Shown piece by piece: positions 22,916-62,771 of a stretch of 64,000 bases of DNA; within the stretch, counting starts at the first letter, position 1, and every line of letters begins with the position of its first letter. The stretch spans positions 35,488-99,487 of the forward strand of contig CAZOYW010000002.1 in NCBI GenBank assembly GCA_964584165.1. The letters are read 5' to 3'. The position numbers were made by a program, and so were the translations under genes. The notes under the pieces are model-generated. The model searched no databases. It was not told the DNA's origin and saw only the letters and a list, made by a program, of their open reading frames with translations. The DNA comes from an uncultured bacterium (lineage in GTDB: Bacteria; Auribacterota; Erginobacteria; Erginobacterales; CAZKCI01).

Positions 22916-25552
22916 TTAGCGCGTGACCGGGATGTCGCCGGTGGAGCCGAGGTAGACCCGGGTCAAGGCGCGCGCGTTCCACATCCCCGCCCCGTCGCGG
23001 AAGATCCCGGCGTCGTCGGCCCCCTCCCCGTCGTAGTCGGCCGGAACCGGCCGGTCGCCCGCGGCGCCGAAGTAGAAGGTGGTGAGGAGGCGGATCGCCC
23101 AGTAGCCGTTCGCCGGCCGGAAGACGGCGATCTCCGCGCGCCCGTCGCCGTCGTAGTCGGCGGGCGCGGCGATGTCCGCGCCCCCCCCGAAGTAGGCCCG
23201 GGTGACGTTCCGCGCCGACCAGAGGGACTGCGAGCCCCGGAAGACGGCGAGGTCCCTCGTCCCATCGCCGTCGTAGTCGGCGGGGACGGGAAGGTCGGCG
23301 GACCCGCCGAAGTATTCCCGGGTGAGGGCGTAGATCACCCAGAAGCCCGCCGCCGGGCGGAAGATCGCCGGGCGGCTCGACCCGTCGCCCGCGTAGTCGC
23401 CGGGGAGGACGAAGTCCTCCGCCCCGCCGAAGTAGACGCGGGTGAGGTTCCGGATCGACCACATGACCGAGGAGGGGCGGAAGATCCCGATCTCGCTAGT
23501 CCCGTCGCCGTTGTAGTCGGCGGGGACGGGGAGGTCGGCTATCCCGCCGAAGATGACCCGAGTGACGTTCCGGACCGTCCATTGGCCGTTCGCCTGACGG
23601 AAGATCCCGATCTCGCTCGTCCCGTCGCCGTCGTAGTCGCCGGAGGCAAGCACGTGCTTCGCGGGGGTGGGCGTGGCGGCCGTCCCCGGCGAGGGCGTCG
23701 GGGTCGCGGTTGCCGCGGGTCTGGGCGTCGGGGTGGGGCTCGGCGTCCGGCTCGGCGAAGGGGCCGGCGTGGCCGAAGGCGTCGGCGTGGCCGAGGGGAG
23801 AGCCGTGGGGGTGGGGGAGGGTGATGAGGTCGGGGAGGGGGAGGGCGTTTCATAGCCCGGCGGCGTGGAGGTGGGCGAGGCGGTAGGGCTGGGGGTGGGG
23901 GTCCGGGTCGGGGTGACGCTGGGTCCCACATTGAACTGGTTGCTCACGTCCCACTCCTCGGTCGCGCTTGGATAAGTCATCATCGCCCAGATCCGGAACT
24001 TGGTGGGTTGCAGTCCGCCGCCCGGCATGGGCAGATCGGCCTTGCAGTTCCAGTTATAGACGTGCTCGGCGCCGCCGAGGGAGGAGGTCAGATTGGACGT
24101 GTTTTCGCCCCAGGCCGCCTTGGTCGCCCCATACCAAAAATCCCCGGCAATGCTGTACTCGGCGCGGATGAGGGGGGTGGTGGAGCTGTTCCACGAGTAG
24201 AGGCGATAGTTCACCGGGACGGCGTTGGACCAGACGCGGCTGGGCAGGTCGTTGACCTCGACGGAGCGCGCCCCCTTCTTGATCCCCGCCCCCAGCTGTC
24301 GCCGCTCCTCCGGTGTCTCCGTCCGTCCGCTCCGGAGGAAGAAGTAGCTCGTCCCCAGACGGACGGAGTCGAGGTCGGCGTTGCCGAGCTCGTTCCAGGA
24401 GCCGGACTCCCCGCTCGCCTCCCCGATCTCTCCGATCGGCCATTCCCGCAAGACCCAGCGGAAGCCGTTGGTGGAGTACCAGGAGGCGATCGGACCGTCC
24501 TCGCCCTCATGCGTCCACATCATCCATCCCTGCCGGACGCCGTAGTAGTAGACCTCCTCGAAGGCGTCGAGATGGTCGGGATAGCTTAGGCCCGGATCGG
24601 TGTAGCCGGTGAAGGCGACGAGTTTGTTCGGTATCTGACCGGGGGAGCGGGTTCGGCAGTAGGGATCGTTGGCGTAGAGAGTCCAGTTGAGGCCGTTGGA
24701 GGATAGATAGAGCTCGTAGTAATAGGGATCGCCGTTCTCGGAGCTATTCAGGTACATCAGATAGCGGTTGTTCATGGAGTTGGAGTCGGTGGTGGAGAGC
24801 GCCGGGAGGCCTTCCGGGCGATAGAGGACGGTGGGCTTGGACATCACCCGGTAGGCGTCGACGGTCTTGGCCGCGGGCGGGCAGTACACCCCTTCCGAGA
24901 AGGCGCGCCAGGAGACGCCGTCGGTGGACTCGGCGTACTGGAAGTGGCGGCCGGCGTCGGGAGGGGCGTTGGCGAACCACATCCGTCCCTTGATGCGCTG
25001 GCTCTCGGCCGTCCACCTCACCTCGAACTCCGGGAAGGTCTCCCGCGACCAGGCGACGGTGTGGCAGCCCATGCCGTGGGCGAAGAGGCTTTCGACCGCG
25101 ATCGCCTCCCCCCCGTTCCCGTATTCCCAGGCCATCCCGTCGGAGGAATGGGCGACGAAGAGCCGGCCGGATTCGGTGTCGTCCGTCCAGCCCTGGAAGA
25201 TCGCGGTGAGACGCGACCCGTCCCAGCCGATCGCGCTGTCGAAGGCCCCGTGTCCGTCCCGGCTCGGGATCGCGGCGGCGGAGCCTTGCGACCAGTCGGC
25301 GTAGGTAAAGCCCGTCCAGAAGGGGGGGATGGGGGTCTTGGCGGGGGAGGGCGTGGGCGTCGCGGTGGGTGTCGCGAGGGGCGTCGGCGTCCGGGGCGGC
25401 GTGGGGGTTTGGTATCCCGGAGGCGTGAGCGTCGGGGCCGCCGCCGGGGTCGGCGTGAAGAAACCTTCGGGCGTGGGCGGCGGGGTCTGCCCCCGCAGTG
25501 CCGGCGGCAGAATGAGGAGAACGGCGAAGGCGATGGCGGCCCGTCGTTTCAT
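22916..25552 (-). CDS. Secreted protein with Pro/Thr-rich linkers and 7 C-terminal FG-GAP/VCBS-type repeats (beta-propeller)
   Basis: Signal peptide [15 protein letters not shown], (TPTP)n linkers, and the repeated block PADYDGDG(T/R)xE(I/L)(G/A)(I/V)FR. Confidence 0.7.
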
Positions 25553-26265: not shown

Positions 26266-26370
26266 TGTGGGCCGGTCGCGCGGACCTCAAGGTCCGCGCC
26301 TACGGGGTGCTCGGGAGCGGCGCGTCGATGCGTCGCGTTCGTAGCCGCGGACTTTTAAGTCCGCGGGACG
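26266..26370. repeat. Second copy of the REP-like compound hairpin element (unit B then unit A), overlapping the stop codon of the downstream Wzy gene
   Basis: ggtcgcgcggacctcaaggtccgcgcctacg ... cgttcgtagccgcggacttttaagtccgcgggacgggg. Compare with 22118-22250. Confidence 0.85.
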
Positions 26371-27905
26371 GGGTCGGCGCGCGTCAGGTCGCGGCCCTCT
26401 CCATTCCGGACCAACTCGTTGGCGATGATCCCCAGCCAGAGCCAGACGTGGAGCATGGGGATCCGGTTGACCAGGTTGAACGAGACGAAGTTCTGGAAGA
26501 TCAGGCCGGCCCAGACGCCGAGGAGGCCCAGCGCGATCCCCCGGCTCAGGGGGGAGGGGGACGAATCGCGGACCGCGACGCAGATCCCGAAGAAGCGGCT
26601 GAGGAGCCAGGCCACGGCGAAGAGTCCGAGGAGCCCCAGCTGGGAGAGGAGGGAGGTCCAGCCGGAGTCGCTGATGTAGGTCAGGCGGTAGGTGTCGATG
26701 TCGAGCCAGCGGCGGTGGGAGTGCTCCGGAAACATGCCCGGGGTGCCCCGCCCGGCGCCGGTCACCTCGGAGGCCAGCGTCCCCGGTCCGACGCCGAAGA
26801 TGGGGTAGCGCCGGATCACCCGGGGGGCGACGGTGAGAAGGGCGTAGAGGCGGTCGGACTTGAAGGACTGGCGGAACTTGCCGGGAGAGAAGGTGGAGAG
26901 GTAGCGGTCGGAGAGGGAGGCCCGCTTCTCCTCGCCGGCTTTCCAGGACACCTCCCGGGCGAGGAGGAGGGAGAGGCCGAGGACGAGGGCGAAGACGGAC
27001 CAGTAGATCCAGGCCTGGTACTGCTTGAGCAGGGAGAAGATGAAGAAGACGCCCAGGACGAGACCGATCCAGGACATCCGCGAGTAGCTTAAGCCCAGCG
27101 CGGCCAGGCAGGGCAGGGTGAAGGCGAAGTACCCCAGGCGGAGGCTGTCCGTGCGGGGGGAGGCGAGGTAGATCCCCAGGGTCAGGCAGAGGATGAAGAA
27201 GAGGAAATTGCCGAGGTGGTTGTAGCGCCCCAGGGTGGAGAAGATCTTGGTCGTGCCGCCCAGGTCCTGGCGGGTGGACTCCCGGATCAGTTTCCCCTTG
27301 AAGTAGACATCCCGGGGCTTCAAGACCTTGGAGAAGTTCTCCCCGGCGGCGGACTGGGCCAGGCCGATGGCGCAGACGATCACGGCGGCGACCGCCGTCG
27401 CCGCGAGGAGTCGCCGGGGGAAGCGGAGCGGCAGTTCGAGGTTGACCACGGCGTAGAAGAGGAAGAAGTAGCGGATCAGGTTCTTGATCCCCAGCAGGCC
27501 GACCAGAAGCGGAGCGCGGTTGACCAGCGTCGATGCTCCCGCCGCGACGAGGATGAGCAGGATGGGTCCGTCCAACGGGGTCCGGCGCCAGAGGAGTCCC
27601 GCGTGCCAGTTGCGCAGGAGGAGGTGGAGGAAGACGAGAAGGATCAGCGCCTCCCCCCAGTAGCGGGCGGGGGACCCCAGGACCGGAGGGAGCCACTTGG
27701 TCAGGAATTCCTCGAAGAGCGAGTAGACGGCGAGGAAGCCGAGGAAGAAGGGGATGTGGCGGACGAAGAACCAGGCGGCGAAGACGAGGAGGGGGAGAGC
27801 GAGAAGGAGCGCGGGTTTGAGGACGGTCAGGGCGCCGGCCAGGAAGAGGGCGGCGAGCCAGACCAGGCCGAAGAGGAGGGTGGAGAGGGCGGAGCGGAGT
27901 GTCAT
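26355..27905 (-). CDS. O-antigen ligase/polymerase family protein (third Wzy_C paralog)
   Basis: Polytopic membrane protein with a GLSYSRMSWIGLVLGVFFIF motif. Confidence 0.65.
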   Translation of the reverse strand: MTLRSALSTLLFGLVWLAALFLAGALTVLKPALLLALPLLVFAAWFFVRHIPFFLGFLAVYSLFEEFLTKWLPPVLGSPARYWGEALILLVFLHLLLRNWHAGLLWRRTPLDGPILLILVAAGASTLVNRAPLLVGLLGIKNLIRYFFLFYAVVNLELPLRFPRRLLAATAVAAVIVCAIGLAQSAAGENFSKVLKPRDVYFKGKLIRESTRQDLGGTTKIFSTLGRYNHLGNFLFFILCLTLGIYLASPRTDSLRLGYFAFTLPCLAALGLSYSRMSWIGLVLGVFFIFSLLKQYQAWIYWSVFALVLGLSLLLAREVSWKAGEEKRASLSDRYLSTFSPGKFRQSFKSDRLYALLTVAPRVIRRYPIFGVGPGTLASEVTGAGRGTPGMFPEHSHRRWLDIDTYRLTYISDSGWTSLLSQLGLLGLFAVAWLLSRFFGICVAVRDSSPSPLSRGIALGLLGVWAGLIFQNFVSFNLVNRIPMLHVWLWLGIIANELVRNGEGRDLTRADPVPRT

Positions 27906-28003: not shown

Positions 28004-29365
28004 CTATAAACCGGCCGCCCCCCCATCATAGCCCAAACCCTTCCGATAGACTCGAAGAAGATAGGCGAGGCCGAGCAGGGCGGCGATGACCGTGGCGGCG
28101 GCGATCCCGGCGAGCCCCCAGAGCTTGATAAAAAGGAGGTTGAAGGCGATCTTCCCGGCGAGGCGGATGATCCCGAGGTTGCGGATCGCCCGGGTATTCT
28201 TGATCGTGAGGAAGGCGCGGGTCAGGATGTAGCTCAGGATCTGGGGGAGGAGGGCGAGGTTCATCACCGCGTACAGGAGGGCCACCTGCCGGAGGGATTC
28301 GGCGGGGAAGCCGGTCCGCCCGTAGGCGAGCCCGACGAGCGGGCGGTGGACGAGGATGAGGAGGGCGCTGGCGCCGGCCGCCAGGAGCGCCGTCCAGCGC
28401 AGGGAGCGGGAGAGCGAGCGCTTAAGCCCCGCGGACCCGTCCTCGCCGTAATAGCCGTGTGACCAGTGGGAGAGGAAGGTGGTGAGGAAGCCGGTGGAGG
28501 AGAAGATGACCGGGATGAGGTAGAGCCGCTCGGCGTAGGAGAGGGAGGAGATCGCCCCCACCCCGAGTCCGGTGGCCATCATCTTGTCCACGATCGGGGA
28601 GAGCTCGGAGGCGACCATTCCCACCGTCTGCTGTCCCGCCTTGCGGACGAACTCCCCCATCCCCCGGAAGAGGCTGTCGGCCCGGCGGAGGCGGAGGCGG
28701 GGGGAGGCGAGGAGGGCGGCGAAGAGGAGGAGGAGGCGGATGAGCTCCCCCGCGACGTAGCCCAGGCTGATGGCGCGGATGCCCAGGTGGTCCCGCAGGA
28801 GCCAGCCGCAGGCGAGGACGATCGCCGCCCGGACCCCGGCGGAGAGGCCGGGGAGGGCGAAGGAGCGATAGGCGTTCAGGGTCCCGGCGATCAGGCTGGA
28901 GAGGGCGGTCAGCGGAACCAGCGGCGTCAGCTCGGCGAGGCAGCGGCGGACCAGGGGAAGCTCTCCCGGAGGGAAGCGGGTGACCCAGGGGAGGAGGAGG
29001 GAGATCAACGCCCAGCCGGAGAGGGAAAGCGCCGCGAGCGAGATCGCGGTCAGGGGGAGGAGCCGGCCGACGAACTGTCCCACGTCTCTCCCGGCGGCCC
29101 GCTCCTCGGCGATGAAGGGGACGACCACGGACTCCAGGACCGGGGCGAAGATCAGGGTGATGAAGGTGACCCAGGCGTAGGCGAAGAAGAAGGCGTCGGT
29201 GGCGGAGGAGGAGCTGAACCAGTCGGCGATGAAGAAGGGGACGACTAGGCCCAGCCCCTTGCCGAGGTTGTTGGCGGCCGTCGCCACCGCCGTGTCCCGG
29301 AGGAGGGGGGAGGGGCGCCAGCGACGGGGTTTTCCCGGGGGGACGGAGACGCTGGAGTCAGCCAT
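28004..29365 (-). CDS. MurJ/MviN-family flippase (MOP superfamily)
   Basis: N-terminal ...NNLGKGLGLVVPFFIADWFSSSSATDAFFFAYAWVTF matches the MurJ signature. About 14 TM helices. Confidence 0.65.
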   Translation of the reverse strand: MADSSVSVPPGKPRRWRPSPLLRDTAVATAANNLGKGLGLVVPFFIADWFSSSSATDAFFFAYAWVTFITLIFAPVLESVVVPFIAEERAAGRDVGQFVGRLLPLTAISLAALSLSGWALISLLLPWVTRFPPGELPLVRRCLAELTPLVPLTALSSLIAGTLNAYRSFALPGLSAGVRAAIVLACGWLLRDHLGIRAISLGYVAGELIRLLLLFAALLASPRLRLRRADSLFRGMGEFVRKAGQQTVGMVASELSPIVDKMMATGLGVGAISSLSYAERLYLIPVIFSSTGFLTTFLSHWSHGYYGEDGSAGLKRSLSRSLRWTALLAAGASALLILVHRPLVGLAYGRTGFPAESLRQVALLYAVMNLALLPQILSYILTRAFLTIKNTRAIRNLGIIRLAGKIAFNLLFIKLWGLAGIAAATVIAALLGLAYLLRVYRKGLGYDGGAAGL

Positions 29366-29484
29366 GGCTGTTCACGGATCGGGGCCCCGACGAACCGCGC
29401 TCGGGGCCAGCCGGAATGCCCCTTCCCCCCGGGAACAGGACCATCCGCGGGTTCCCCGGCGCTGGCATCGGCGTTCCAATATTT

Positions 29485-31164
29485 ATGCTTAACGATCGCG
29501 CGGCTATCACTTACTATTACTCGACTTTTCCCGTGAAGACCAGACAAACATGGGCGTGGCTATCCGCGGCGGTTCTCCTTTTGCTTTTGGCGGTGTGGGG
29601 GATGGCGAGCTATCGCTCCCCCCTCCTCGATCCCGGCGGGAGGAACCCGGCGGAGCGGGTCGCCGACTTCTTCGCCTACAGCTGGCTTTACAGCAAGGCG
29701 CTCTGGCTGGAGAATACCCGCCGTCCCGAGGCCTCTGAGGCGGCGGCCTTCTCCGCCGCCTGGTTCCGCCCCTCCCTCCTGGCCAGCCGGTTGGGCGGCG
29801 ACCTCTCCGATCCCCTGGCCCTGGCCGGGGAGTACGAGAAAAGAGGGCTCCCCGACCGCGCCGGACGGCTCCTGCAGCTCGCCGCCGCCCGGACGCGCGA
29901 CGGGGAGCGGCTCCCCGAGATCGTCTCCCGCCTCGCCGCCCTGGAGGATTGGGAGCGGCTGATCGCCGTTCTCGACGCTAGCGACCAGGGCCGCCTCGCC
30001 GCGGCGAACGCCGACTACTGGCGGGGGCGCGCCCTCCTCGAACTCGGGCGGCCGGAAGAGGCGATCCCCGATCTTTCCCGCGCCGCCGCCGCCGGCCTCG
30101 GCGACGCCTCCTACCGCCTCTTCCTCGCCCTCCGCGCGGCGGGAAGGGGAGAGGAAGCCGGGCGGAGCCTCCTCGCGGCGGTCGCGGCCGCTCCCGATCA
30201 CGCCGCGGCGGAAGCGGCCGCCGCCGATCTTCTGCGCGTTTCGGGAAAGGCGGGGGAGGGGGAGGACCGGCGTTGCCGCGCCGAGTCGCTCACCCCCGCC
30301 TTCCCCGTGCGCGCGGTTTTCGGGGAGATCCGCCTCCTCGGCTTCGACCCGCCCGCCCCCCGCCTCAAGGGGGAGGAGACGCTCCGCTGCCGGATCTTCT
30401 ATGAGGTAATCGGAGCCGCCTCCGGGCCGGTCACCGCCCGTCTCGCCCTGGAGAGGGAGAACCGCCCGGGGGCGGTCAAGGAAATCGCGATCCCCCCCGG
30501 CCGTTTCGACCCGGGAGTCGTCCGCACCGCCCTCTGGGAGTTTCCTCTCCCCGCCGATATCGTCCCGGGATCCTACCGGGTCGAGATCCGCCTGGAGAGC
30601 GCCCCCGGCCGTCCGCTCCGCCGCCTGGGCTCCCGGGAGGAAGAGCTGTCCTGCGGGGAGACGGTGGTCCTCCCCGGCGTCTTCCCCGTCCCCTACGCCG
30701 ACCGCCACCTCGCCGAGCTCTTCGGGTCCGACCTGGAGAACCTGCGCCTCTCCTCCGTCCTCAACGGCCGCGACCGGGTGGTCATTCCCCTCTCCCCCGC
30801 GCGCCTCCGCGCCGGGGTCGGGATCGTCTCCTACACCCAGTGGTCCGCCTCGGTTCCCCAAGGGGCGCCGGTCGCCGAGCTCACGGTGGAGACGGCGGAG
30901 GGCGAGAGGCACCGCTTCCCGATCGCGGCGGGCGTGGAGACCGCCGACATCTGGCTCTCCGACCGCTCTCCGGAGGAGCGGGCCCACGGGCTGGCCCCGC
31001 TTTACCGTTCCCGCGCGGTGGAGCGGGGGGGGAAGCAGGCGACGGCCAACGCCTACTACTACGTCTTCCGCCTCCCCCGCCCGGCGCGCCTGACCGCGGC
31101 GGCCGTCGAGTACGTCCATCCCTCCGCGGGGGCGCTCTTCATCCAGAATCTTTTTCTCCTCTGA
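29485..31164 (+). CDS. Membrane-anchored TPR-like protein of unknown function
   Basis: Start MLNDRAAITYYY followed by a TM helix (WAWLSAAVLLLLLAVWGMA), then Ala/Leu/Arg-rich TPR-like helices and a C-terminal beta-rich region. Confidence 0.45.
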   Translation: MLNDRAAITYYYSTFPVKTRQTWAWLSAAVLLLLLAVWGMASYRSPLLDPGGRNPAERVADFFAYSWLYSKALWLENTRRPEASEAAAFSAAWFRPSLLASRLGGDLSDPLALAGEYEKRGLPDRAGRLLQLAAARTRDGERLPEIVSRLAALEDWERLIAVLDASDQGRLAAANADYWRGRALLELGRPEEAIPDLSRAAAAGLGDASYRLFLALRAAGRGEEAGRSLLAAVAAAPDHAAAEAAAADLLRVSGKAGEGEDRRCRAESLTPAFPVRAVFGEIRLLGFDPPAPRLKGEETLRCRIFYEVIGAASGPVTARLALERENRPGAVKEIAIPPGRFDPGVVRTALWEFPLPADIVPGSYRVEIRLESAPGRPLRRLGSREEELSCGETVVLPGVFPVPYADRHLAELFGSDLENLRLSSVLNGRDRVVIPLSPARLRAGVGIVSYTQWSASVPQGAPVAELTVETAEGERHRFPIAAGVETADIWLSDRSPEERAHGLAPLYRSRAVERGGKQATANAYYYVFRLPRPARLTAAAVEYVHPSAGALFIQNLFLL

Positions 31165-31257
31165 TCCGCGGCGCGGATCAAAGGAGAAAAAGGGGCTTGC
31201 TATCCGCGGACCTTTCCGCGATCTAGTATCGGGGTTTCCCGGGCTGGGGCAGGAAGA

Positions 31258-32694
31258 TTGTCCATGCATAAGCGCATCGTCAGGGCCTACATCGCCGTTG
31301 ACGCCGTCGGCCTTCTTCTGGCCTTCTACCTCCCCTACCTCATCCGCTACAACAGCGACCGGATCGCTCTGCTCCTCTCCTACCCGGCCGGCCGGATCAT
31401 CAGCAACCTCTGGCTTCCGTCGCTCGGCTCCTACACCACGGTCTACCTCTTCTGGGGGATGACCGCCCTCCTCCTCCTCCAGCACTACCAGCTCTTCGCC
31501 ACTCCCCGCGAGCTCTCCTATCTGGAGGAGACGATCGCCGTTCTCAAGGTCACCTGCTTCTCCTGCCTCCCTGCGGCGGCGGCCGTCTTCTTCCTCCAGA
31601 TCAAGTTCTACTCCCGCCTGGTCTTCGCCTTGAACGCCCTCGCCCTCTTCCTCCTCCTCGCCGCCTGGCGGGCGGCGAAGCGGCGCCTGGTGCGCGCCCG
31701 GGTGGCCCGGGGACACGACAACCTCCGGGTCCTGATCGTCGGGGCGGGGAAGGTGGGGGCGGCGGTGGCCTCCGAGATGGCGCGCCTCCCCTACTTCGGC
31801 TGGGAGGCGGTCGGCTATCTCGACGACCGCGCCCGCGCCGGCCCGTCCGGCCGGCCGGTCCTGGGGACGCTCGCGGAGCTGGAGCCGGTCGCCCGGCAGC
31901 ATTTCATCGACCTGGCGATCGTGACCATCCCCTCGGCCCGGGAGAAGGTTGCCGCCATCCTGGAGACCGCCCGCGCCCTCAAGATCGGCGTCCGGATCGT
32001 CCCCGATCTCCACCAGCTCTCCTCCGAGGAGATCCGCGCCTCCGCGCTCGGGGAGATCCCCCTCCTCGAGTACCACCCCCACCATCCCCACGGGACGGAC
32101 CTGGCGGCGAAGAGGGCCTTCGACCTGATTTTCTCCGGCCTTCTCCTCCTGTTCCTTCTCCCCTGCCTGCCCGTCCTCGTCCTCCTGATCAAGCGCGACA
32201 GCCCGGGGCCGGTCTTCTACGTCTCCCGCCGCTGCGGCAAGAACGGGCGGGTCTTCAGCTTCTTCAAGTTCCGGACCATGGTCCCGGGGGCGGAGGCGAT
32301 GCTCGACTCCCTCCAGGCGGAGAACGAGTCCGACGGGCCGGTCTTCAAGATGAAGAACGATCCCAGGGTGACGCGGGTCGGGCGCCTCCTGCGCCGCTTC
32401 AGCATCGACGAACTCCCCCAGCTCTGGAACGTCTTCCGGGGCGATATGTCCCTGGTCGGCCCCCGCCCGCCCACCCCCGAGGAGGTGAAGCGGTACAGCG
32501 ATCGCCAGCTCCGGCGCCTGGAAATCCGCCCCGGGATCACCTGCCTCTGGCAGGTCAAGGGGCGGGCCGACCTCTCCTTCGAGGAGTGGATGAAGTGGGA
32601 CCTTTTCTACATCGAGAACTGGTCCTTCTGGCTGGACCTCCAGATCCTCCTCCTCACGTTGGGGGCGGTGGTGCGGGGGAAGGGAGCGTATTAA
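31258..32694 (+). CDS. Undecaprenyl-phosphate sugar phosphotransferase (WbaP/EPS priming transferase)
   Basis: 4-5 N-terminal TM helices, a Rossmann-fold LIVGAGKVGAAVA, and a C-terminal bacterial sugar-transferase domain (AKRAFDLIFSG ... DELPQLWNVFRGDMSLVGPRP). Confidence 0.9.
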   Translation: MSMHKRIVRAYIAVDAVGLLLAFYLPYLIRYNSDRIALLLSYPAGRIISNLWLPSLGSYTTVYLFWGMTALLLLQHYQLFATPRELSYLEETIAVLKVTCFSCLPAAAAVFFLQIKFYSRLVFALNALALFLLLAAWRAAKRRLVRARVARGHDNLRVLIVGAGKVGAAVASEMARLPYFGWEAVGYLDDRARAGPSGRPVLGTLAELEPVARQHFIDLAIVTIPSAREKVAAILETARALKIGVRIVPDLHQLSSEEIRASALGEIPLLEYHPHHPHGTDLAAKRAFDLIFSGLLLLFLLPCLPVLVLLIKRDSPGPVFYVSRRCGKNGRVFSFFKFRTMVPGAEAMLDSLQAENESDGPVFKMKNDPRVTRVGRLLRRFSIDELPQLWNVFRGDMSLVGPRPPTPEEVKRYSDRQLRRLEIRPGITCLWQVKGRADLSFEEWMKWDLFYIENWSFWLDLQILLLTLGAVVRGKGAY

Positions 32695-32699
32695 AAAAA

Positions 32700-32748
32700 G
32701 TTACGTAAGGTTACGCAAGGTTATGTAAGGTTACGTAAGGTTACGGAA
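32700..32748. repeat. Five tandem 10-mers (G)TTACGTAAGG (the reverse complement of the 794-910 repeat) at exact 10-bp phase, abutting the radical SAM start codon
   Basis: gttacgtaaggttacgcaaggttatgtaaggttacgtaaggttacggaatATG; palindromic cores TTACGTAA / TTACGCAA / TTATGTAA / TTACGTAA / TTACGGAA. Confidence 0.9.
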
Positions 32749-32749
32749 T

Positions 32750-33733
32750 ATGGAAGCCGCGATCGTCGTCACCTACCGTTGCAACGCCCGCTGCGCGATG
32801 TGCGGGACCTGGCGGCACCCCTCCCGGCGGGAGGAGGAGTTCGCCCCGGAGCTCCTCCGGAAGCTCCCGCCGCTTGCCTTCGCCAACGTCACGGGCGGGG
32901 AGCCTTTCCTGCGGGAGGATCTCGCCGAGATCGTCTCCATCCTCTCCGGGCGCTCCTCCCGGGTGGTGATCAGCACCAACGGGTTCTTCACCGACCGGAT
33001 CATAGCCCTCTCGGACCGGTTTCCCTCCGTCGGCGTCCGGATCAGCCTGGAGGGCCTGCCCGCCGCCAACGACGAGCTCCGGGGGCTTAAAGACGGCTTC
33101 GACCACGGCCTGCGCACGCTTCTCGAGCTCCGTAGGCTCGGCCGGCGGGACATCGGCTTCGGGATCACCGTCTCCGACCGGAACGCCTCCGACCTGCTCG
33201 AGCTCTTCGAGCTGGCCCGGTCGATGCGGCTCGAGTTCGCCACCGCCGTCGTCCACAACTCCTATTATTTTCACAAGCAGGACAACGCGATCCGTGACCC
33301 GGATCATGTGATCCGGTGTTTCGAGGAGCTTGTCCGGCGGCTCCTCGGGAGCCGCCGGATCAAGGAGTGGTTCCGGGCCTACTTCAACCGCGGCCTGATC
33401 AACTACGTCCGGGGGCGCCCGCGCCTCCTCCCCTGCGCCGCCGGGGAGGACATGTTCTTCCTCGACCCCGCGGGCGAGGTCCGCCCCTGCAACGGCCTCC
33501 CCGAGGAGTCCGAGGAGACCAGCCTGGGGAACCTGAAGCGCGCCTCGTTCGAGGAGATCTGGCAGGGGGAGCGGGCGCGCGCGATCCGGGAGCGGTTGCG
33601 CTCCTGCCCCCGCAACTGCTGGATGATCGGGACCGCCGCCCCGGCGATGAAGAAGGATCTCATCCGGCCCCTGCGCTGGATCGCCCGGAACAAGATCCGT
33701 CTGGCGCTAGGGAAAGAGCTGGAGGAGATGTAG
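32750..33733 (+). CDS. Radical SAM protein with a C-terminal SPASM/twitch-like Cys cluster
   Basis: VVTYRCNARCAMCG is the CxxxCxxC motif. The C-terminal CAAGEDMFFLDPAGEVRPCNGL ... CPRNCW provides auxiliary-cluster cysteines. 327 aa. Confidence 0.75.
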   Translation: MEAAIVVTYRCNARCAMCGTWRHPSRREEEFAPELLRKLPPLAFANVTGGEPFLREDLAEIVSILSGRSSRVVISTNGFFTDRIIALSDRFPSVGVRISLEGLPAANDELRGLKDGFDHGLRTLLELRRLGRRDIGFGITVSDRNASDLLELFELARSMRLEFATAVVHNSYYFHKQDNAIRDPDHVIRCFEELVRRLLGSRRIKEWFRAYFNRGLINYVRGRPRLLPCAAGEDMFFLDPAGEVRPCNGLPEESEETSLGNLKRASFEEIWQGERARAIRERLRSCPRNCWMIGTAAPAMKKDLIRPLRWIARNKIRLALGKELEEM

Positions 33734-33877
33734 TATCGTCCGGTGTTCGCTCGCGCGAACACCGGAATTGAAGTATCTCCTTCCCGATTCGCCGGCGAAT
33801 CGAGAAGGATCGCCGGGCCGGCTGAATACGGAAGGAGTTTGGCCCCAACCGCTCGCATAATTATTCATCATTCGCTA

Positions 33878-33922
33878 AGTCCATGCCGTCCATATCGTCC
33901 ATTCCGTCCATAACGTCCGCCG
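33878..33922 (+). repeat. 9-bp-periodic GTCCATNNC array (x4-5) directly upstream of the GT4 gene; it lies within a 22-codon uORF (33883-33951) encoding MPSISSIPSITSAAFPGADLRP
   Basis: gtccatgccgtccatatcgtccattccgtccataacgtcc. The uORF stop overlaps the GT4 ATG (ATGA). Confidence 0.7.
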
Positions 33923-33947
33923 CCTTCCCCGGGGCTGACTTGCGCCC

Positions 33948-35060
33948 ATGAAAGTCGTCGTCGTCGGGACCCGCGGCTTCCCCGGCGTCCCCGGGGGGGT
34001 GGAGCGGCACGGCGAGGAGCTCTATCCCCGCCTCGCCGAGAGGGGGTGCGAGGTCACCGTTCTGACCCGGGCGCCCTACCTCCCCCCGGCGGGGAGGCTC
34101 AAGGAGTGGCGGGGCGTCCGCTTCCTCCACCTCGGAGCCGTCCGCTCCAAGCATTTCGAGGCCGCCCTCCACACCCTGCGGGGCGTGCTCCTCGCCCGCC
34201 GCCTCCGGCCCGATCTCCTGCACGTCCACGCGATCGGCCCCGCCCTCTTCGTCCCGCTGGCCCGCGCCCTCGGCTTGCCGACGGTGATGACCGACCACGG
34301 CCCCGACTACCGGCGGTCCAAGTGGGGGCGGTTGGCCAAGGCCATGCTCCGGCTCGGCGAGTCCGCCGGCGTCCGCTGCTCCACGCGCGTGATCGCGGTC
34401 TCGCGGGGGATCGCGTCCGACCTCGCCGAGAGATACCGCCGCGCCGACATCGCCTACATCCCCAACGGGGTGCCCATCCCCGCCCCGGTCCCGCCGGGCG
34501 AAACCCTGCGCCGGCTCGGCCTTTTCCCCGGCGGCTACCTTCTCACCGCCTGCCGGTTCGTCCCGGAGAAGGGGCTTTCCACCCTGGCCGAGGCCTTCCG
34601 CCTCCTTCCGTCGCCGGAGGCGAGGCTGGTGATCGCCGGGGGGGCCCAGCTTGGCGACCCGACCGAGCGGGCTCTCCTCTCGGCCGCGCGCGCCGACCCC
34701 AGGATCGTTCTCCCCGGCTTCCTCTCCGGACGGCCGCTCGCGGAGCTCTTCTCCCACGCCGGCCTCTTCGTCCTTCCCTCGCTCTATGAGGGGCTCCCGA
34801 TCGCGCTCCTCGAGGCCCTCTCCTACGGCCTCCCGGTCGCGGTGAGCGACATCCCTCCCCACCGGGAGATCCCCCTCCCTCCCTTCCGCTATTTTCCCCC
34901 CGCCGCCCCGGCGGCGCTGGCGGGAAAGATCGCCGAGTGCCTGGAGCGGGGGATAACCGAGGAGGAGCGAGCGTCCGCCCTCGGCCTCCTCCGGCGCGAT
35001 TTCGACTGGGACGCCATCGCGGAGAGGACGCTCGCCGTCTACCGCTCGGCCCTCCCATAG
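33948..35060 (+). CDS. Glycosyltransferase family 4
   Basis: MKVVVVGTRGFPGVPGGVERH ... LPSLYEGLPIALLEALSYGLPVAVSD. Confidence 0.8.
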   Translation: MKVVVVGTRGFPGVPGGVERHGEELYPRLAERGCEVTVLTRAPYLPPAGRLKEWRGVRFLHLGAVRSKHFEAALHTLRGVLLARRLRPDLLHVHAIGPALFVPLARALGLPTVMTDHGPDYRRSKWGRLAKAMLRLGESAGVRCSTRVIAVSRGIASDLAERYRRADIAYIPNGVPIPAPVPPGETLRRLGLFPGGYLLTACRFVPEKGLSTLAEAFRLLPSPEARLVIAGGAQLGDPTERALLSAARADPRIVLPGFLSGRPLAELFSHAGLFVLPSLYEGLPIALLEALSYGLPVAVSDIPPHREIPLPPFRYFPPAAPAALAGKIAECLERGITEEERASALGLLRRDFDWDAIAERTLAVYRSALP

Positions 35061-35099
35061 GTCTTATAGGTCCTATAGGTCCTATAGGACCTATAAGAC
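35061..35099. terminator. Near-perfect 39-bp palindrome/hairpin (gtcttataggtcctatagg|tcctataggacctataagac) immediately after the GT4 stop
   Basis: Read directly. Arms are complementary apart from the central unit. It is an AT-richer island. Confidence 0.5.
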
Positions 35100-35146
35100 C
35101 TATGGGAGGGCTGGAGTTTTCGTCCGCCTTGACCTATGATCGCCCC

Positions 35147-36544
35147 ATGAAGCGCGATCCGTCCCCCGCGTTCTCTCCTCCACCCCCCTCCCGGCCGCCC
35201 TGGCTCGCCGCTCTCTTCGTCCTGGCCGCCTCAAGCCTCGCCTTCTGCGTCGCGGCGATCCCGCCCTGGCAGTCTCCCGACGAGCCGACCCATTTCGAGT
35301 ACGCCCGACTCCTCGCCCGGGACGGCTGGCGCTCCCCGCTCCGCCCCGATCCCGCCCTGGAGGAGGCGATCATCGCCTCCCTCTCCCGCAACGACTTCTG
35401 GCGCTTAGTCAAGGTCTCCCCCCCGGAGCGTCCGCCCCGGACCTTCCTCGCCGCCCCCTTCCTCTGCCAGGCGCCGACCCAGATCGGCAAGAACCCCCCG
35501 GGCTACTATCTGCTCGCCGCTCAGGTCCTCCGTTTCTGCCCCCGGCAGAGCCTGGTCGCCCAGCTTTATTGCCTCCGCCTCCTCAGCGCGCTCTTATCCC
35601 TCCTCACCGTGGGGGCGGTCTTCCTCTGCGCCCGGGAGGCCTTCGGCGGCGGATTCTTCCCCGCCCTGGCCGCGGCCGCTTTCGCCGCCGGTCTTCCCCA
35701 GTTCGCGGTGATCGGGGGTTCGGTCAGCCCCGACCCGCTGAGCAACCTCCTCGGCGCGCTGTTCATCCTCCTCACGCTCCTCGAACGCCGCGGTCCGCGC
35801 CGGCGCTTCTCGGGGGCCTTTCTCGTCCTGCTGGCCGGCCTTTTCGTCAGCTACAAGTTCCTCATCCTGCTCGGCGCCCATTTCCTTCTCCGCCTCGCCG
35901 ATCTCGTCCGCCCTCCCCCGGGCCATGGTCGCCGCGCGGCCCTCGCCGCCTTGGGCGCCGAGTCGCTCGTCCTGCTCGTCGCCTACTGCGCCCTCCTCTG
36001 GTTTTCGCCCTCCCTGGTCGGGATCTTCCTCCGCCGGTTCCGGATGCTCATCGCCGCGGTCTTGGGCTTCCCCGGCGCCCCCGCCCCGCCTCCGGGATAC
36101 TGGCGCTGGTTCGCGGTCATGCTCTTCAAGAGCTTCTGGCTTTATTTCGGTTGGCTCCTCTATCCCGCCCCGGCCGTCCTCTACGGAGCCTGGGGGGCTC
36201 TGACCGGGCTCGCCCTCTGCGGGGCCGCGGTGCGGCTGCTCGGAGGGAAGGGGGACGAGGAGGGCTCGCGCGCGTCCTTCCCGGGGATCGGTTCGCTCGC
36301 CGTTCTCGCCGGTTCGGTCCTGGCCGCCTACTACGCCTTCTGGGGACTGCGCAGCGGCTACACCACCACCCAGGGGCGGCATCTCTTCCTCGCCCTTCCC
36401 GCCTGGGCGATCCTTTTCGTATGGGGGCTGACCGGCCTCTTCCCGCCCCGCCTCCGGGACGGCCTCTGCCGCGGAGTTTTCCTGATCCTGCCGCTGCTCG
36501 CCTCCGCCGCCTTCGCCGGTTCGGTGTGGAAGGTCTACCGCTGA
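35147..36544 (+). CDS. DUF2142-like polytopic membrane protein (GT-C-like fold?)
   Basis: MKRDPSPAFS ... WQSPDEPTHFEYARLL near the N-terminus, then >10 TM helices. It is typically paired with GT2, as here. Confidence 0.5.
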   Translation: MKRDPSPAFSPPPPSRPPWLAALFVLAASSLAFCVAAIPPWQSPDEPTHFEYARLLARDGWRSPLRPDPALEEAIIASLSRNDFWRLVKVSPPERPPRTFLAAPFLCQAPTQIGKNPPGYYLLAAQVLRFCPRQSLVAQLYCLRLLSALLSLLTVGAVFLCAREAFGGGFFPALAAAAFAAGLPQFAVIGGSVSPDPLSNLLGALFILLTLLERRGPRRRFSGAFLVLLAGLFVSYKFLILLGAHFLLRLADLVRPPPGHGRRAALAALGAESLVLLVAYCALLWFSPSLVGIFLRRFRMLIAAVLGFPGAPAPPPGYWRWFAVMLFKSFWLYFGWLLYPAPAVLYGAWGALTGLALCGAAVRLLGGKGDEEGSRASFPGIGSLAVLAGSVLAAYYAFWGLRSGYTTTQGRHLFLALPAWAILFVWGLTGLFPPRLRDGLCRGVFLILPLLASAAFAGSVWKVYR

Positions 36545-36577
36545 AACCGCCGACAAATAATTAACCGCGGATCGCTA

Positions 36578-37636
36578 TTGGCCATGCCTGACATCCCATC
36601 GGATAAATCGGCGGTCGCCGGCGAGCTCGCCTCCGTGGTCGTCCTGACCTGGAACGGGAAGGAGCACCTCGAGGAGTGCCTCTCCGCCCTGCTCGCCCAG
36701 ACCTATCCGGAAAAGGAGGTCATCCTCGCCGACAACGCCTCGACCGACGGGACGGTCGGCTTCGTCCGGGAGCGCTTCCCCGCCGTCCGGGTGGTGGCCA
36801 TCGAGAAGAACCTCGGCTACGCGGGGGGCAATAACCGGGGGATCCAATCCGCCCGCGGCGCCTACGTCGCCCTGATCAACAACGACACCCGGGCCGACCC
36901 CTCCTGGCTCGCCGAGATGGTCGCGGCCATGAAGGCGGACCCGTCCTGCGGGATGGTCGCGGGCAAGATTCTCTCCTACGGCGACCGCCGGGTGATCGAC
37001 AACGTCGGCCACGTCTTCTACCGCGACGGCACCTTCCGGGGGAGGGGGAGGCTGGAAATCGACCGGGGCCAATACGACCGCCCGGAGGAGGTCCTTTCCC
37101 CCAGCGGCTGCGCCCTCCTCTTCCGCCGCCTGGCCCTTGACCGGGTCGGCCTCTTCGACGAGGAGTTTTTCATCTACGGCGACGACGCCGAGCTCTCGCT
37201 GCGCCTGCGCCTCAACGGTTGGCGGGCCCTTTACGTTCCCACCGCGGTGGTCTATCATAAATACTCCGCCAGCACCGGGGCCTATTCGCCCTTCAAGGCT
37301 TTCCTGGTGGAGCGGAACCGGATCTGGCTGACGATCAAGTATTTCCCGCTCGGCTCGTTGCTCCGGAGCCCGGTCTTCGCGGTCTGGCGGATGCTCCTCC
37401 AGGCCTACGGCGTGGCGTCGCGGAAGGGGGCGGCCGGCCGCTTCGCCCGCGAGCATTCGGCCGGCGCGCTGGCCCTGGTCGCCCTGAAAGCGAACCTGGC
37501 CGCCCTCCGGGGGGCGCCGGGGATGTGGCGCAAGCGGCGGGAGATGAGGGCGCTGCGGCGGGTCTCCGCGGCCGAGTTCAACCGCTGGTTCAAGCGGTTC
37601 GGCCTCTCGGCCCGGGAGTTGGCGTTGAAGGAATAG
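36578..37636 (+). CDS. Glycosyltransferase family 2
   Basis: VVVLTWNGKEHLEECLSALLAQTYP ... ADNASTDGT ... DDAELSLR (DxD). Confidence 0.8.
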   Translation: MAMPDIPSDKSAVAGELASVVVLTWNGKEHLEECLSALLAQTYPEKEVILADNASTDGTVGFVRERFPAVRVVAIEKNLGYAGGNNRGIQSARGAYVALINNDTRADPSWLAEMVAAMKADPSCGMVAGKILSYGDRRVIDNVGHVFYRDGTFRGRGRLEIDRGQYDRPEEVLSPSGCALLFRRLALDRVGLFDEEFFIYGDDAELSLRLRLNGWRALYVPTAVVYHKYSASTGAYSPFKAFLVERNRIWLTIKYFPLGSLLRSPVFAVWRMLLQAYGVASRKGAAGRFAREHSAGALALVALKANLAALRGAPGMWRKRREMRALRRVSAAEFNRWFKRFGLSARELALKE

Positions 37637-37640
37637 GACC

Positions 37641-38780
37641 ATGAGAATCGGCATCAATGCGCTTTATCTCATCCCCGGCCGGGTCGGCGGTTCCGAGATC
37701 TACCTGCGCCGCCTCCTGCAGGGCCTGGCCGCCCTCGACCGGGAGAACGACTATGCGGTCTTCACCAACCGGGAAAGCCGGGGGGGGCTGGCCCTGGGGC
37801 CGAACTTCAAGGAGTATCCCTGCTCCGTCCGCGCCCGCTTCCGCCCCCACCGGATCCTCTGGGAGCAGATCGTCCTTCCCCTCCGGGCGAGGAAGCTTAA
37901 GCTTGACCTCCTCCACTCCCCCGGCTTCACCGCTCCGCTCTTCTGCCCCTGCCCGTCGCTGGTGACGATCCTGGACCTGATCTACCTGGACTTCCCCGAA
38001 ACCTTCCCCCCCTTGGCCCGGGCGATGATGAGGTTCTTCACCCGCCGCTCCGCCCGCGGCGCGGCGCGGGTGATCGCTCTCTCCGGCTACTCGCGCGACG
38101 AGATGCTCTGGGAGCTGGATCTGCCCCCCAACCGGGTCAGCGTCGTCCCGCTGGGCGCGCCCGAGCGGGAGTCGGACGGGCTCTCCCCGGAGGGGAGGAG
38201 GGAGATCCTCTCCCGCCGCGGCATCGTCGCTCCCTACATCCTGGCCATCGCCGCCGCCCATCCCCACAAGAACATCATGCGCCTCCTGGAGGCCTTCTAC
38301 CACCTGCGCCGGAAGGGGCTCCCCCACCGGCTGGTCGTGGTGGGCGTGATGCACGGGCGCTACTACGGGGAGCTCCAGAAGGCGTGCGACCGCTTGGAGA
38401 TCGGGCGGGAGGTCGTCTTCACCGGCTGGATCCCCGAGGCGGAGAAGGAGTCGGTCCTGGCCGGAGCCGATCTTCTCGCCTTCCCCTCCCTGCTCGAGGG
38501 GTTCGGACTCCCGGTCCTGGAGGCGATGAAATTCTCCGTCCCGGTGGCCTGCGCCGACGTGCCCTCCCTGCTCGAGGTCACCGGCGACGCGGCCTACCTC
38601 TTCAACCCCTACTCGGTGGAGGAGATCGCCCGGGCGCTGGAGGCCTGCCTGACCCTGCCGGACCTCCGCCGGGACCTGATCGCAAAGGGGAGGAAGCAGG
38701 CCGCGAACTTCTCCTGGGAGAAGACCGCGCGGCAGACGCTCGACCTCTACCGGTCGGTCGCCGCCGGGGATAAACAGTGA
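37641..38780 (+). CDS. Glycosyltransferase family 4
   Basis: MRIGINALYLIPGRVGGSEIY ... PSLLEGFGLPVLEAMKFSVPVACAD. Confidence 0.8.
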   Translation: MRIGINALYLIPGRVGGSEIYLRRLLQGLAALDRENDYAVFTNRESRGGLALGPNFKEYPCSVRARFRPHRILWEQIVLPLRARKLKLDLLHSPGFTAPLFCPCPSLVTILDLIYLDFPETFPPLARAMMRFFTRRSARGAARVIALSGYSRDEMLWELDLPPNRVSVVPLGAPERESDGLSPEGRREILSRRGIVAPYILAIAAAHPHKNIMRLLEAFYHLRRKGLPHRLVVVGVMHGRYYGELQKACDRLEIGREVVFTGWIPEAEKESVLAGADLLAFPSLLEGFGLPVLEAMKFSVPVACADVPSLLEVTGDAAYLFNPYSVEEIARALEACLTLPDLRRDLIAKGRKQAANFSWEKTARQTLDLYRSVAAGDKQ

Positions 38781-38863
38781 TCAGCAATCAGTGATCAGTT
38801 ATCAGCAACATCCGTCCATCTCTTTTCACTGATCACTGATTACTGATCACTGTTCACTGATCC
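38775..38863. repeat. Compound inverted repeat with 7-bp-periodic arms (TGATCAG...CTGATCA) after the GT4 stop
   Basis: gtgatcagcaatcagtgatcagttatcagca-N19-actgatcactgattactgatcactgttcactgatc. The same family recurs at 45159-45257. Confidence 0.8.
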
Positions 38864-39922
38864 CTGCTTCTCTCCCTTCCGCCGCCTTTCCCGGGCCAGC
38901 TCCTTCTCGAAGGCCGGCCAGAAGGGGTCGGCGAGCGGTTGGCTGAGCCGCCGCGCCCGTCCCCCGCCGAAGACGCGCACCCCCTCCCGTTCCGGGCGGA
39001 CCTCCCCGGCGATCGAGGCCGGGATCGCCGCCCGGTTGAGGGCGCGGATCACCCCCTCCGCCGCCCCGGGGCGGGCGGTGGCAAGGAGCGTCCCCTCGCT
39101 GATCGAGACGAAGGGATCGATCCCGAAGCAGGCGCAGGTCTTCTCGACCTCCTCCGGGATGATGATCCGGTCGAGGTCGATCCGCATCCCCACCCGGCTG
39201 TGGGCGGCGATCTCCCAGAGCCCGCCGAGGACGCCCCCCTCGGTGGCGTCGTGCAGGGCGGTCACCCCTCCCGCCGCGGCCGCGGTCAGGGCGTCCTTCA
39301 CCGTCGACATCCGGTAGTACACGTCCCGGGCCCGGCGGAGGAAAGCCCTCCCCCAGCGCTCCTCGAGCGGGCGGGGGAAATAGGCGGCGAGCAGGCCCGT
39401 GGTCTCGATCGCCGGCCCCTTGCTGACGATGACGGCGTCGCCGACCCGGGCCCGGGGGACGATCAGCTTCTCCCTCCGGTCGATCCCGAACATGGTGGCT
39501 CCGCCCACCATCGGGTAGTTGCACCCGGCGTAGCGGGCGGTGTGGCCGGTGGCGACCGCGATCCCGAGGCGAGCGCATTCCGCGTGGACGGTCCCCCACA
39601 TCCCGACGAGCTCGCGCTCGGTCATCGCGGGGGGGAGGTTGAGATCGATCGAGAGGTAGCGGGGGGCGATCCCGCTGACCGCGACGTCGCTGGCGATGAT
39701 GTGGACGGCGAACCAGGCGGCCTTCTCGATCCCCAGCTCCCGGGCGATGTAGAAGGGGTCGGTGGAGAGGACCAGGACCCGCGTCCCGAGGTCGATGACG
39801 CCGAAGTCGACGCCCGCGCGGGGTTTGAGGATCAGGGAGGGGTCCCTCCGGCCGAGTTTCGGATAGATGTGGCGGCGGAAGAAATCGGGATGGATCTTCC
39901 CCAGCGGAGCCAGTTTCTTCAT
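38840..39922 (-). CDS. AIR-synthase-related protein (PurM/HypE/ThiL-like superfamily)
   Basis: FAVHIIASDVAVSGIAPRYLSIDL ... GIAVATGHTARYAG ... ALHDATEGGVLGGLWEIA parallels HypE/PurM-fold motifs. It lacks HypE's C-terminal Cys. Confidence 0.6.
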   Translation of the reverse strand: MKKLAPLGKIHPDFFRRHIYPKLGRRDPSLILKPRAGVDFGVIDLGTRVLVLSTDPFYIARELGIEKAAWFAVHIIASDVAVSGIAPRYLSIDLNLPPAMTERELVGMWGTVHAECARLGIAVATGHTARYAGCNYPMVGGATMFGIDRREKLIVPRARVGDAVIVSKGPAIETTGLLAAYFPRPLEERWGRAFLRRARDVYYRMSTVKDALTAAAAGGVTALHDATEGGVLGGLWEIAAHSRVGMRIDLDRIIIPEEVEKTCACFGIDPFVSISEGTLLATARPGAAEGVIRALNRAAIPASIAGEVRPEREGVRVFGGGRARRLSQPLADPFWPAFEKELARERRRKGEKQGSVNSDQ

Positions 39923-40232
39923 CTCTTCTCCTCCCGCGGCCGTTCGCCGCGGGCTGCGGTTGGTCGGGAAGATCGCGCCAACGGGGGCAAAACAAAGCCC
40001 CCCGGGCAGAGCACGGAGGGCGACGCGATCCTTTTCCCTACGCCGGCATTACCCGGATCAGGTCCGTCGGGTCTTCCGCTCCCCGCGGAACTCTCAGGCC
40101 GTGGCACGACCTCCCCGTGGTCGTCCCAGTCTCGAGGCAACCGGTCGTTGCTGTCAAGCCCAATCCCCCGGGATGTCTCCCCAATCCCTCGGCCCTAGCG
40201 TTGAGCATTTTCCCCGGTCGGGCATGAGACAC

Positions 40233-45170: not shown

Positions 45171-45257
45171 TCAGTGATCAGCAGCGGGCAAACAGAGGCA
45201 TCGTTTTCTCGCTGATCACTGGTCGCTGATCACTGATCGCTGATCACTGATCACTGG
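45159..45257. repeat. Second compound TGATCAG 7-mer inverted repeat, between the M16 peptidase stop and the DUF1844 gene
   Basis: gtgatcagtaatcagtgatcagca-N33-gctgatcactggtcgctgatcactgatcgctgatcactgatcac. Confidence 0.8.
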
Positions 45258-45828: not shown

Positions 45829-47565
<1,737 letters not shown>

Positions 47566-62762: not shown

Positions 62763-62771
62763 GGAGATAAT

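Follow-up and report, generated by a model that had tools for sequence, protein, structure and literature searches.

Radical S-adenosylmethionine (SAM) enzymes that modify sugars with the help of a twitch domain are known almost only from antibiotic pathways. The dehydrogenases BtrN and SpeY and the epimerases HygY and NeoN abstract hydrogen from a C-H bond of a carbohydrate-like substrate and have a shortened SPASM-like domain that holds one auxiliary cluster. BlsE (PDB 7VOB), the cytosylglucuronic acid decarboxylase of the blasticidin S pathway, acts on a substrate that contains glucuronic acid, and DesII, the thymidine diphosphate (TDP)-4-amino-4,6-dideoxyglucose deaminase/dehydrogenase of macrolide sugar biosynthesis, is a precedent for radical SAM chemistry on a nucleotide-linked sugar, although it has neither an auxiliary-cluster domain nor fusions to glycosyltransferases. 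In the HpnI/HpnK/HpnJ pathway to the hopanoid cyclitol ether, and with the calditol synthase Cds, a glycosyltransferase installs a sugar that a radical SAM enzyme remodels on the lipid. The peptide and protein maturases SkfB, CteB, SuiB, anSME, and MftC combine a radical SAM core with a C-terminal Fe-S domain, an architecture shared by the radical SAM (rSAM) protein considered here. Its gene lies at 32750-33733 (+) of the 64,000-nucleotide stretch of DNA from an uncultured bacterium that was analysed (the window), in an exopolysaccharide (EPS) locus, between a priming transferase gene (31258-32694, +) and a gene for a glycosyltransferase of family 4 (GT4; 33948-35060, +).

The family to which this protein belongs is co-inherited with, translationally coupled to, and repeatedly fused with one clade of GT4 enzymes (GT4A), and often with a second (GT4B), in surface-glycan loci of anaerobes. 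The window protein is probably a sugar- or glycan-tailoring partner of GT4A; the fuller explanation, in which it is the sugar-tailoring enzyme of a conserved rSAM-glycosyltransferase module in a Wzx/Wzy surface-polysaccharide pathway, is given a probability of about 0.5. The twitch rSAM that acts on sugars is already known as a kind of enzyme; what is new is that it is systematically embedded among, and fused with, glycosyltransferases that belong to primary cell-surface polysaccharide pathways, and that there are fusions supplying a self-contained reductase.

The family and its glycosyltransferase partners

More than 4700 database proteins match the window rSAM at E <= 0.001, and the best 120 matches are all 61-97% identical to it and about 327 amino acids (aa) long. 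Clustering at 50% identity (E <= 1e-30) gives 464 clusters. Relatives were found in at least 535 species of the genome collection, which span roughly twenty bacterial phyla as well as Nanoarchaeia, Woesearchaeota, and Methanosarcinales; among the carriers are anammox bacteria, Nitrospirota, DPANN archaea, and Coprococcus of the human gut. The window protein scores 593 bits on the hidden Markov model (HMM) of the family, for which no existing family model was found, nor any paper in the part of the full-text literature that was searched.

Neighbours were compared at the 80 best genome loci, in which open reading frames (ORFs) were called and the products clustered; presence was counted over those 67 in which the rSAM gene has 1.4 kb or more of flanking sequence on each side. 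GT4A is found in 71 of the 80 loci, plus two fusions, and in 62 it is encoded immediately downstream of the rSAM, with a median gap of -3 nucleotides (nt), that is, with overlapping stop and start codons. GT4B, a protein of ~409 aa, occurs in 52 loci and is immediately upstream in 48 (median gap 34 nt). Over the 67 loci GT4A is present in 61, GT4B in 46, both in 44, and either in 63; clustering finds neither in four, one of which (L066) encodes a GT4A fused to a Cps2T-like domain. The rSAM-GT4A pairing is also seen in Brocadia, Coprococcus, and other loci. This arrangement, an rSAM adjacent or fused to GT4A with GT4B upstream, is here called the rSAM-GT4 cassette. The window rSAM and the GT4 that follows it, which scores ~475 bits on the GT4A HMM, form such a cassette in its two-gene form: GT4B is lacking (best score 112 bits, vs ~430 for true members), as in 17 of the 61 GT4A-bearing loci. 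An rSAM that had seemed an odd gene thus becomes a predicted functional pair with the downstream GT4.

The position of the gene between the priming transferase and the GT4 is as the earlier note had given it, but the view taken there, that an rSAM inside a polysaccharide cluster is unusual, does not hold for this family, all of which is found in glycan loci, coupled or fused to the two GT4 clades. The other neighbours differ from locus to locus, yet all are glycan genes, encoding methyltransferases, GT4s, Wzx, Wzy, priming transferases, family 2 glycosyltransferases (GT2s), pyruvyl transferases, deacetylases, and exosortases. None of the rSAM neighbours in the 80 loci is a peptidase, exporter, aminotransferase, or cofactor gene, and no nucleotidyltransferase or other partner for nucleoside diphosphate (NDP)-sugars is conserved among them. 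When matched pairs of genomes are compared, the rSAM has a median identity of 59%, vs 37.5% and 38.9% for its GT4 partners, and the distances of the three proteins correlate with one another (r = 0.43-0.59), which is what joint inheritance of a cassette would give.

The two GT4 partners differ from each other in sequence features. DUF1972 is matched by 61 of 72 GT4A members, in which no clade-specific Cys or other obvious target motif was seen. GT4B carries an insertion with four invariant Cys residues in the pattern VCPxY...CxxC...C (C131, C143, C146, and C159 in the numbering of L013); examples are L013 5526-6773, L016 6670-7926, and residues ~135-170 of P0206, and the window has none. The insertion is probably a Zn or Fe-S site, which is unusual for a GT4.

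Fusions were counted among the 120 best matches to a Zixibacteria rSAM-GT4A fusion used as the query. GT4B-rSAM proteins make up 48 of these clusters, one of which contains 1987 sequences; proteins from Desulfovibrio and from gut Lachnospiraceae (Coprococcus sp. OM04-5BH, for example) are among the 48. Twelve clusters are rSAM-GT4A and seven are GT4A-rSAM, with fusion linkers of 0-6 aa; because both orders occur, the rSAM/GT4A fusions arose independently. In 39 clusters the rSAM is fused to a domain resembling ferredoxin-NADP reductase (FNR), a flavin/nicotinamide adenine dinucleotide (FAD/NAD) domain confirmed with Pfam, giving proteins of ~590 aa (P0149, P0154, P0170, and P0187; loci L090-L097) that are common in Kiritimatiellae and other uncultured groups and that would be self-reducing radical SAM enzymes. 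These rSAMs are also found in polysaccharide loci, and one of them has a GT4B-like gene on one side and a GT4A-like gene on the other; a Kiritimatiellae locus departs from this, its rSAM being accompanied by a PIG-L-domain protein and a DMT_6 protein. Single cases join the rSAM to an Acyl_transf_3 membrane domain (P0195) and to a BATS-type rSAM. The AlphaFold2 (AF2) model of a natural rSAM-GT4A fusion, built from 11 sequences, has a predicted template modelling score (pTM) of 0.59 and no confident docking of the domains.

Tight coupling and fusion to GT4s would also be expected if the glycosyltransferase were itself the target, with the rSAM acting either as a protein maturase or activase in the manner of anSME or QhpD, or as an Fe-S redox sensor that gates glycosyltransferase activity. 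The four invariant Cys of GT4B, with their probable metal, could exchange electrons with the rSAM. GT4A is the partner present in the window, however, and it is the clade that lacks specific Cys or a target motif; some loci contain the rSAM with neither GT4A nor GT4B; the strict conservation of the SAM-binding and cluster motifs argues for catalytic turnover; and a maturase fused to its own substrate protein would be unusual. This explanation is improbable.

Domains, motifs, and the maturase alternatives

The ORF at 32750-33733 (+) begins with ATG and encodes 327 aa. Homologues down to E = 1e-212 rule out a chance ORF, and the identical protein is present, as called by an independent gene caller, on ten public metagenome contigs, with the same neighbours on all four for which flanking sequence was shown. 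Pfam assigns residues 5-155 to Radical_SAM (PF04055; 51 bits, cut-off 29.5). The cluster motif, C11-N-A-R-C15-A-M17-C18 (32780-32803, +), has the unusual form CxxxCxMC, and the SAM-binding GGE(P) motif is G49-G50-E51-P52 (32894-32905, +); C11, C15, C18, and G49GEP are invariant in the homologues, and M17 is conserved in at least 90% of the family. BlsE carries the same Met in its CxxxCxMC motif (PMC3715490). The cluster motif, the GGE motif, and the Pfam score place the protein in the radical SAM superfamily, and its AF2 model has a partial TIM-barrel core that resembles many rSAM structures.

A second Pfam match, to SPASM, covers residues 229-290 (33434-33619, +; 44 bits, cut-off 21.5). The earlier note had described a radical SAM/SPASM protein and had proposed that SPASM and twitch be told apart; the radical SAM assignment and the presence of an auxiliary domain both stand, whereas the full SPASM assignment does not. 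A full SPASM domain ligates two auxiliary [4Fe-4S] clusters through seven Cys residues in the motif CX9-15GX4C ... CX2CX5CX3C ... C. Of CX2CX5CX3C the window protein retains only CX3C; none of the 240 homologues has the first two Cys of this stretch or the trailing SPASM Cys. Beyond the cluster motif, the only Cys residues conserved across the 240 are C229, C247 (in G242x4C247), C286, and C290 (C286x3C290), and all four are kept in 234. Since only four C-terminal Cys are conserved, there is at most one auxiliary cluster, and the domain has room for a single Cys4 site. A twitch domain is a SPASM-like beta-hairpin domain in shortened form, in which three or four Cys hold a single auxiliary cluster; the four conserved Cys, an alignment of the twitch region of BtrN to residues 221-287, and a modelled hairpin at 235-245, followed by helices, all agree with that description and with the single-cluster arrangement of BtrN, SpeY, HygY, and NeoN. 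Judged from its sequence, the protein is a radical SAM enzyme whose catalytic parts are intact and which has one predicted auxiliary cluster site, possibly ligated by all four Cys.

Three further features were considered. C190 was rejected as a hydrogen-donor or ligand Cys, since the fusion subfamilies have N or Q at this position. Tyr173 is universally conserved within the invariant but flexible loop HNSxYF and could serve as a hydrogen relay. Residues 302-319 form a conserved basic amphipathic C-terminal helix.

Comparison with proteins of known structure and function gives mixed relationships. A PDB sequence search with the whole protein finds four sugar or cyclitol enzymes among its matches (BlsE, BtrN, AbmM, and SpeY), and SkfB has the best E-value both in that search (3e-11) and with Foldseek. 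On the model, BlsE appears to be the best fold match; the sequence alignment to BlsE spans the N-terminal half only, and a search with the C-terminal 121 residues did not retrieve it. A role in defence was rejected, as the only similarity given by PADLOC is generic, at the level of viperin (29 bits).

No NCBIfam model reaches its cut-off. The best matches, at ~58-62 bits, are AhbD, AhbC, NirJ1, and NirJ; AhbD leads with 62.5 bits vs a cut-off of 500, and the scores of MftC (57 vs 265), PqqE (39 vs 381), and MoaA (36 vs 284) also fall far short. This bears on whether the protein could be a cofactor-biosynthesis rSAM of the AhbD/AhbC/NirJ, PqqE, MftC, or MoaA kind that lies in an EPS locus by chance, the identity that the earlier note had named as the finding that would overturn its view. 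The order of these matches points that way, as does the neighbouring GT2 (36578-37636, +), whose best NCBIfam match is MftF (98 bits). Against it, the NCBIfam matches of the rSAM are confined to the generic N-terminal half, no partner genes for haem, pyrroloquinoline quinone (PQQ), mycofactocin, or molybdenum cofactor (Moco) are present in the window or in the 80 related loci, and the family-wide linkage is to GT4s. A role in cofactor biosynthesis is effectively refuted.

The maturases of peptides that are ribosomally made and then post-translationally modified (RiPPs) are a closer comparison, as SPASM/twitch rSAMs often belong to this group and SkfB heads both structural searches. A candidate precursor could be seen in an upstream ORF (uORF) of 22 codons (33883-33951, +; peptide MPSISSIPSITSAAFPGADLRP) that follows the rSAM gene and would be co-regulated with the EPS genes. 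The uORF, reported in the earlier note, is present as described there: it starts with the ATG at 33883, and its TGA overlaps the ATG of the GT4 gene as ATGA at 33948-33951. A frame of SISSIPSI type that ends in ATGA recurs in the 82% relative of the window organism, where the 9-nt repeat GTCCATNNC is also kept (3 copies, L005 11014-11040). In the window this repeat (33879-33918, +; x4.4) overlaps the uORF just upstream of the GT4A gene. The uORF is an in-frame reading of this GTCCAT repeat, which is also found at 52720-52778 (-), ~60 nt upstream of an unrelated gene for a signal-peptide protein starting at 52659 (-), and its peptide has no Cys.

The protein itself also speaks against peptide maturation. 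SkfB, CteB, SuiB, and MftC (but not anSME) have an N-terminal peptide-recognition domain; the window rSAM starts 10 residues before the cluster motif and has no RiPP recognition element (RRE) or other leader-binding domain. Most RiPP and protein maturases with SPASM domains have a second auxiliary cluster, which the window rSAM lacks, and the family's loci share no conserved precursor peptide. All NCBIfam maturase models fall far short of their cut-offs, the overlap of the rSAM and GT4A genes in most loci leaves no room for a precursor gene, and there are no peptidases, exporters, or RiPP-type neighbours. Peptide maturation, one of two alternatives raised in the earlier note, is therefore disfavoured and is considered very improbable, more so than an action on the glycosyltransferase; the other alternative, a sugar-modifying rSAM, is the one that the evidence supports.

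Substrate and reaction

In the favoured explanation the reduced radical SAM cluster would cleave SAM, the 5'-deoxyadenosyl radical would take hydrogen from a sugar ring carbon, and the resulting electron would pass to the auxiliary cluster in an oxidation or oxidative decarboxylation of the BtrN/BlsE type; a Tyr-assisted epimerisation is a less likely chemistry. The substrate would be a common nucleotide sugar and the product a special donor, which GT4A would add to the product of the upstream priming transferase, the lipid-linked first sugar.

A nucleotide-sugar substrate is favoured by the very high conservation of the rSAM, by the precedents of BlsE, DesII, and viperin with nucleotide- or nucleoside-linked substrates, and by the lack of any other sugar-nucleotide gene in the EPS locus of the window. 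Enzymes of nucleotide-sugar metabolism are usually more conserved than glycosyltransferases. That the substrate is a nucleotide sugar whose product is installed by GT4A is put at slightly less than even odds. As to the chemistry, two features tell against an epimerase of the NeoN/HygY type and for oxidation or oxidative decarboxylation: the auxiliary cluster is predicted to have Cys for all its ligands, and no free Cys is conserved. Any single type of reaction is nonetheless proposed tentatively, at odds clearly poorer than those for the substrate.

Several points weigh against this explanation. No biochemical data on any member of the family were found in the literature. The FNR-like fusions suggest that each turnover consumes an electron, and the steady external need for electrons that they imply is a poor fit to a dehydrogenase that recycles its electron. 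The identity shared with BlsE is only 21%; BlsE, which has no coupling to a GT4, is part of an antibiotic pathway, whereas the family is found in polysaccharide loci; and although the BlsE substrate contains glucuronic acid, genes of uronate supply are not enriched near the family, with genes for uridine diphosphate (UDP)-sugar 6-dehydrogenase in 4 of the 80 loci, which speaks against uronate decarboxylation. In the window itself, the rSAM and GT4A genes are 214 nt apart, with two hairpins between them, which points to looser coupling here than across the family. Finally, the fixed order GT4B-rSAM-GT4A in the fusions fits an assembly-line step on a lipid-linked glycan at least as well as the synthesis of a donor.

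The last point leads to a different substrate. The rSAM might edit a sugar or oligosaccharide linked to undecaprenyl diphosphate at the membrane, between the steps of GT4B (here the priming transferase) and GT4A, by radical epimerisation, oxidation, or decarboxylation of the carrier-bound residue. The gene order is conserved and kept in the fusions, and in the window the rSAM stands directly between the priming transferase and GT4A. DUF1972 marks the glycosyltransferases WchF, Cps2T, and GacB, which act on a primed lipid-linked sugar; GT4A, most of whose members match DUF1972, is related to this type, and this fits the window order of priming transferase, rSAM, and GT4A. A role of this kind is also consistent with the basic amphipathic helix at the C-terminus, with the one fusion that carries an Acyl_transf_3 membrane domain, and with the finding that neither a nucleotidyltransferase nor any other NDP-sugar partner is conserved.

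Other observations count against editing on the carrier. To our knowledge, no radical SAM enzyme acts on a polyprenol-linked glycan; HpnI/HpnK/HpnJ and Cds, which come nearest, involve other rSAM subfamilies and a GT2 partner; no homology to them was detected, and the resemblance is by analogy alone. The 59% median conservation amid varying loci is easier to understand with one small universal substrate, the AF2 model of the fusion shows no confident docking of its two domains, and for the acyltransferase fusion there is just one cluster, from a contig of 3.6 kb. Lipid-linked editing is accordingly judged unlikely, though much less so than the maturase and cofactor alternatives. The same doubt attaches to its fullest form, in which the family would be the first radical SAM enzyme to edit a polyprenol-linked glycan while docked to the preceding and following glycosyltransferases, a GT-rSAM-GT assembly line, in some cases with an NAD(P)H-driven reductase domain of its own, that installs an unrecognised sugar modification. 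Were it true, hundreds of anaerobic bacteria and archaea, gut Lachnospiraceae among them, would carry such a modification in their surface polysaccharides.

The preferred reading, a sugar-tailoring enzyme of the module with GT4A, likewise predicts a widespread oxygen-sensitive sugar modification that standard annotation has missed. Cultured carriers such as Geomobilimonas luticola JCM 17780 and Coprococcus sp. OM04-5BH, natural fusions, and the self-reducing FNR fusions offer targets for enzymology.

The polysaccharide locus and its repeats

The genes around the rSAM bear out the earlier description of a Wzx/Wzy polysaccharide cluster. The priming enzyme directly upstream is a polyprenyl-phosphate glycosyl-1-phosphate transferase with Bac_transf and CoA_binding_3 domains (TIGR03025 EPS_sugtrans, 422 bits vs a cut-off of 296). 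Domain searches further identify a divergently transcribed Wzy_C polymerase/ligase-like gene (26355-27905, -), a MurJ/Wzx-like flippase (28004-29365, -), a DUF2142 membrane protein (in the stretch 34937-38780, +, its true start probably after 35103), and the GT2 mentioned above; a second GT4 (37641-38780, +) falls outside the GT4A and GT4B clades by their HMMs. Bac_transf, flippase, Wzy_C, two GT4s, GT2, and DUF2142 together are the make-up of a Wzx/Wzy-dependent locus; the stretch examined around the rSAM revealed neither a chain-length regulator nor an exporter.

Between the flippase and the priming transferase lies a gene (29416-31164, +; 559-582 aa) that is conserved in the 82% relative and has no family assignment, its sole match being weak and TPR-like; its product could have a part in chain-length control or in regulation. 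At the edge of the locus, the gene for a large FG-GAP repeat protein (22916-25552), which has internal 120/240-nt DNA tandem repeats at 23111-23643 (-), adjoins that for an Lcl_C-domain protein, and the pair is conserved in the 82% relative. On the other side, the EPS operon ends before a convergent gene, related to AIR synthase and ThiL-like (38840-39922, -). Directly upstream of this gene is a thiamine pyrophosphate (TPP) riboswitch (40018-40125, -; 58.8 bits, above the gathering score), which suggests that the gene has a role in thiamine metabolism; riboswitch and gene mark the downstream boundary of the operon.

The rSAM gene is flanked by short repeats and hairpins. The 55-nt gap between the priming transferase gene and the rSAM start codon is filled by the tandem repeat GTTACGTAAG (32700-32745, +; x4.6), whose unit recurs at 793-914; the 82% relative lacks the repeat. 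Two stable GC-rich stem-loops (33739-33766 and 33778-33809, +), with stems of 12 and 13 bp and no T-tract, follow closely on the rSAM stop codon; a promoter and terminator scan of 31000-36800 gave nothing useful and found no terminator at these hairpins. RNA folding of the rSAM-GT4A intergenic region is unexceptional overall (z = -1.2), with the two local hairpins strong. A separation of the two genes is unusual, as most family members overlap, and it is common to the window organism and the 82% relative. The repeat GTCCATNNC, described above with the uORF, is a candidate regulator binding array common to several surface-related genes.

At the junction of GT4A and DUF2142 is a further repeat, TCCTATAGG (35053-35103; x5.7). 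Three independent public assemblies of the window organism stop ~20 nt or less past the GT4 gene, and this repeat seems to be a point at which short-read assemblies break. Many intergenic regions of the window contain tandem repeats with units of 7-10 nt (793-914, 6556-6676, 22788-22849, 32700-32745, 33879-33918, 35053-35103, 38775-38866, 45159-45256, 47484-47560, 47877-47921, 52720-52778, and 62768-62848). Their units are often present at two sites or as pairs of arrays in opposite orientation, such as CAGTGAT/TCACTGA, AGAAGTG/CTTCTCA, and GTGTCAG/CCTGACA; the short tandem repeats look like a genome-wide feature, not one specific to the EPS locus.

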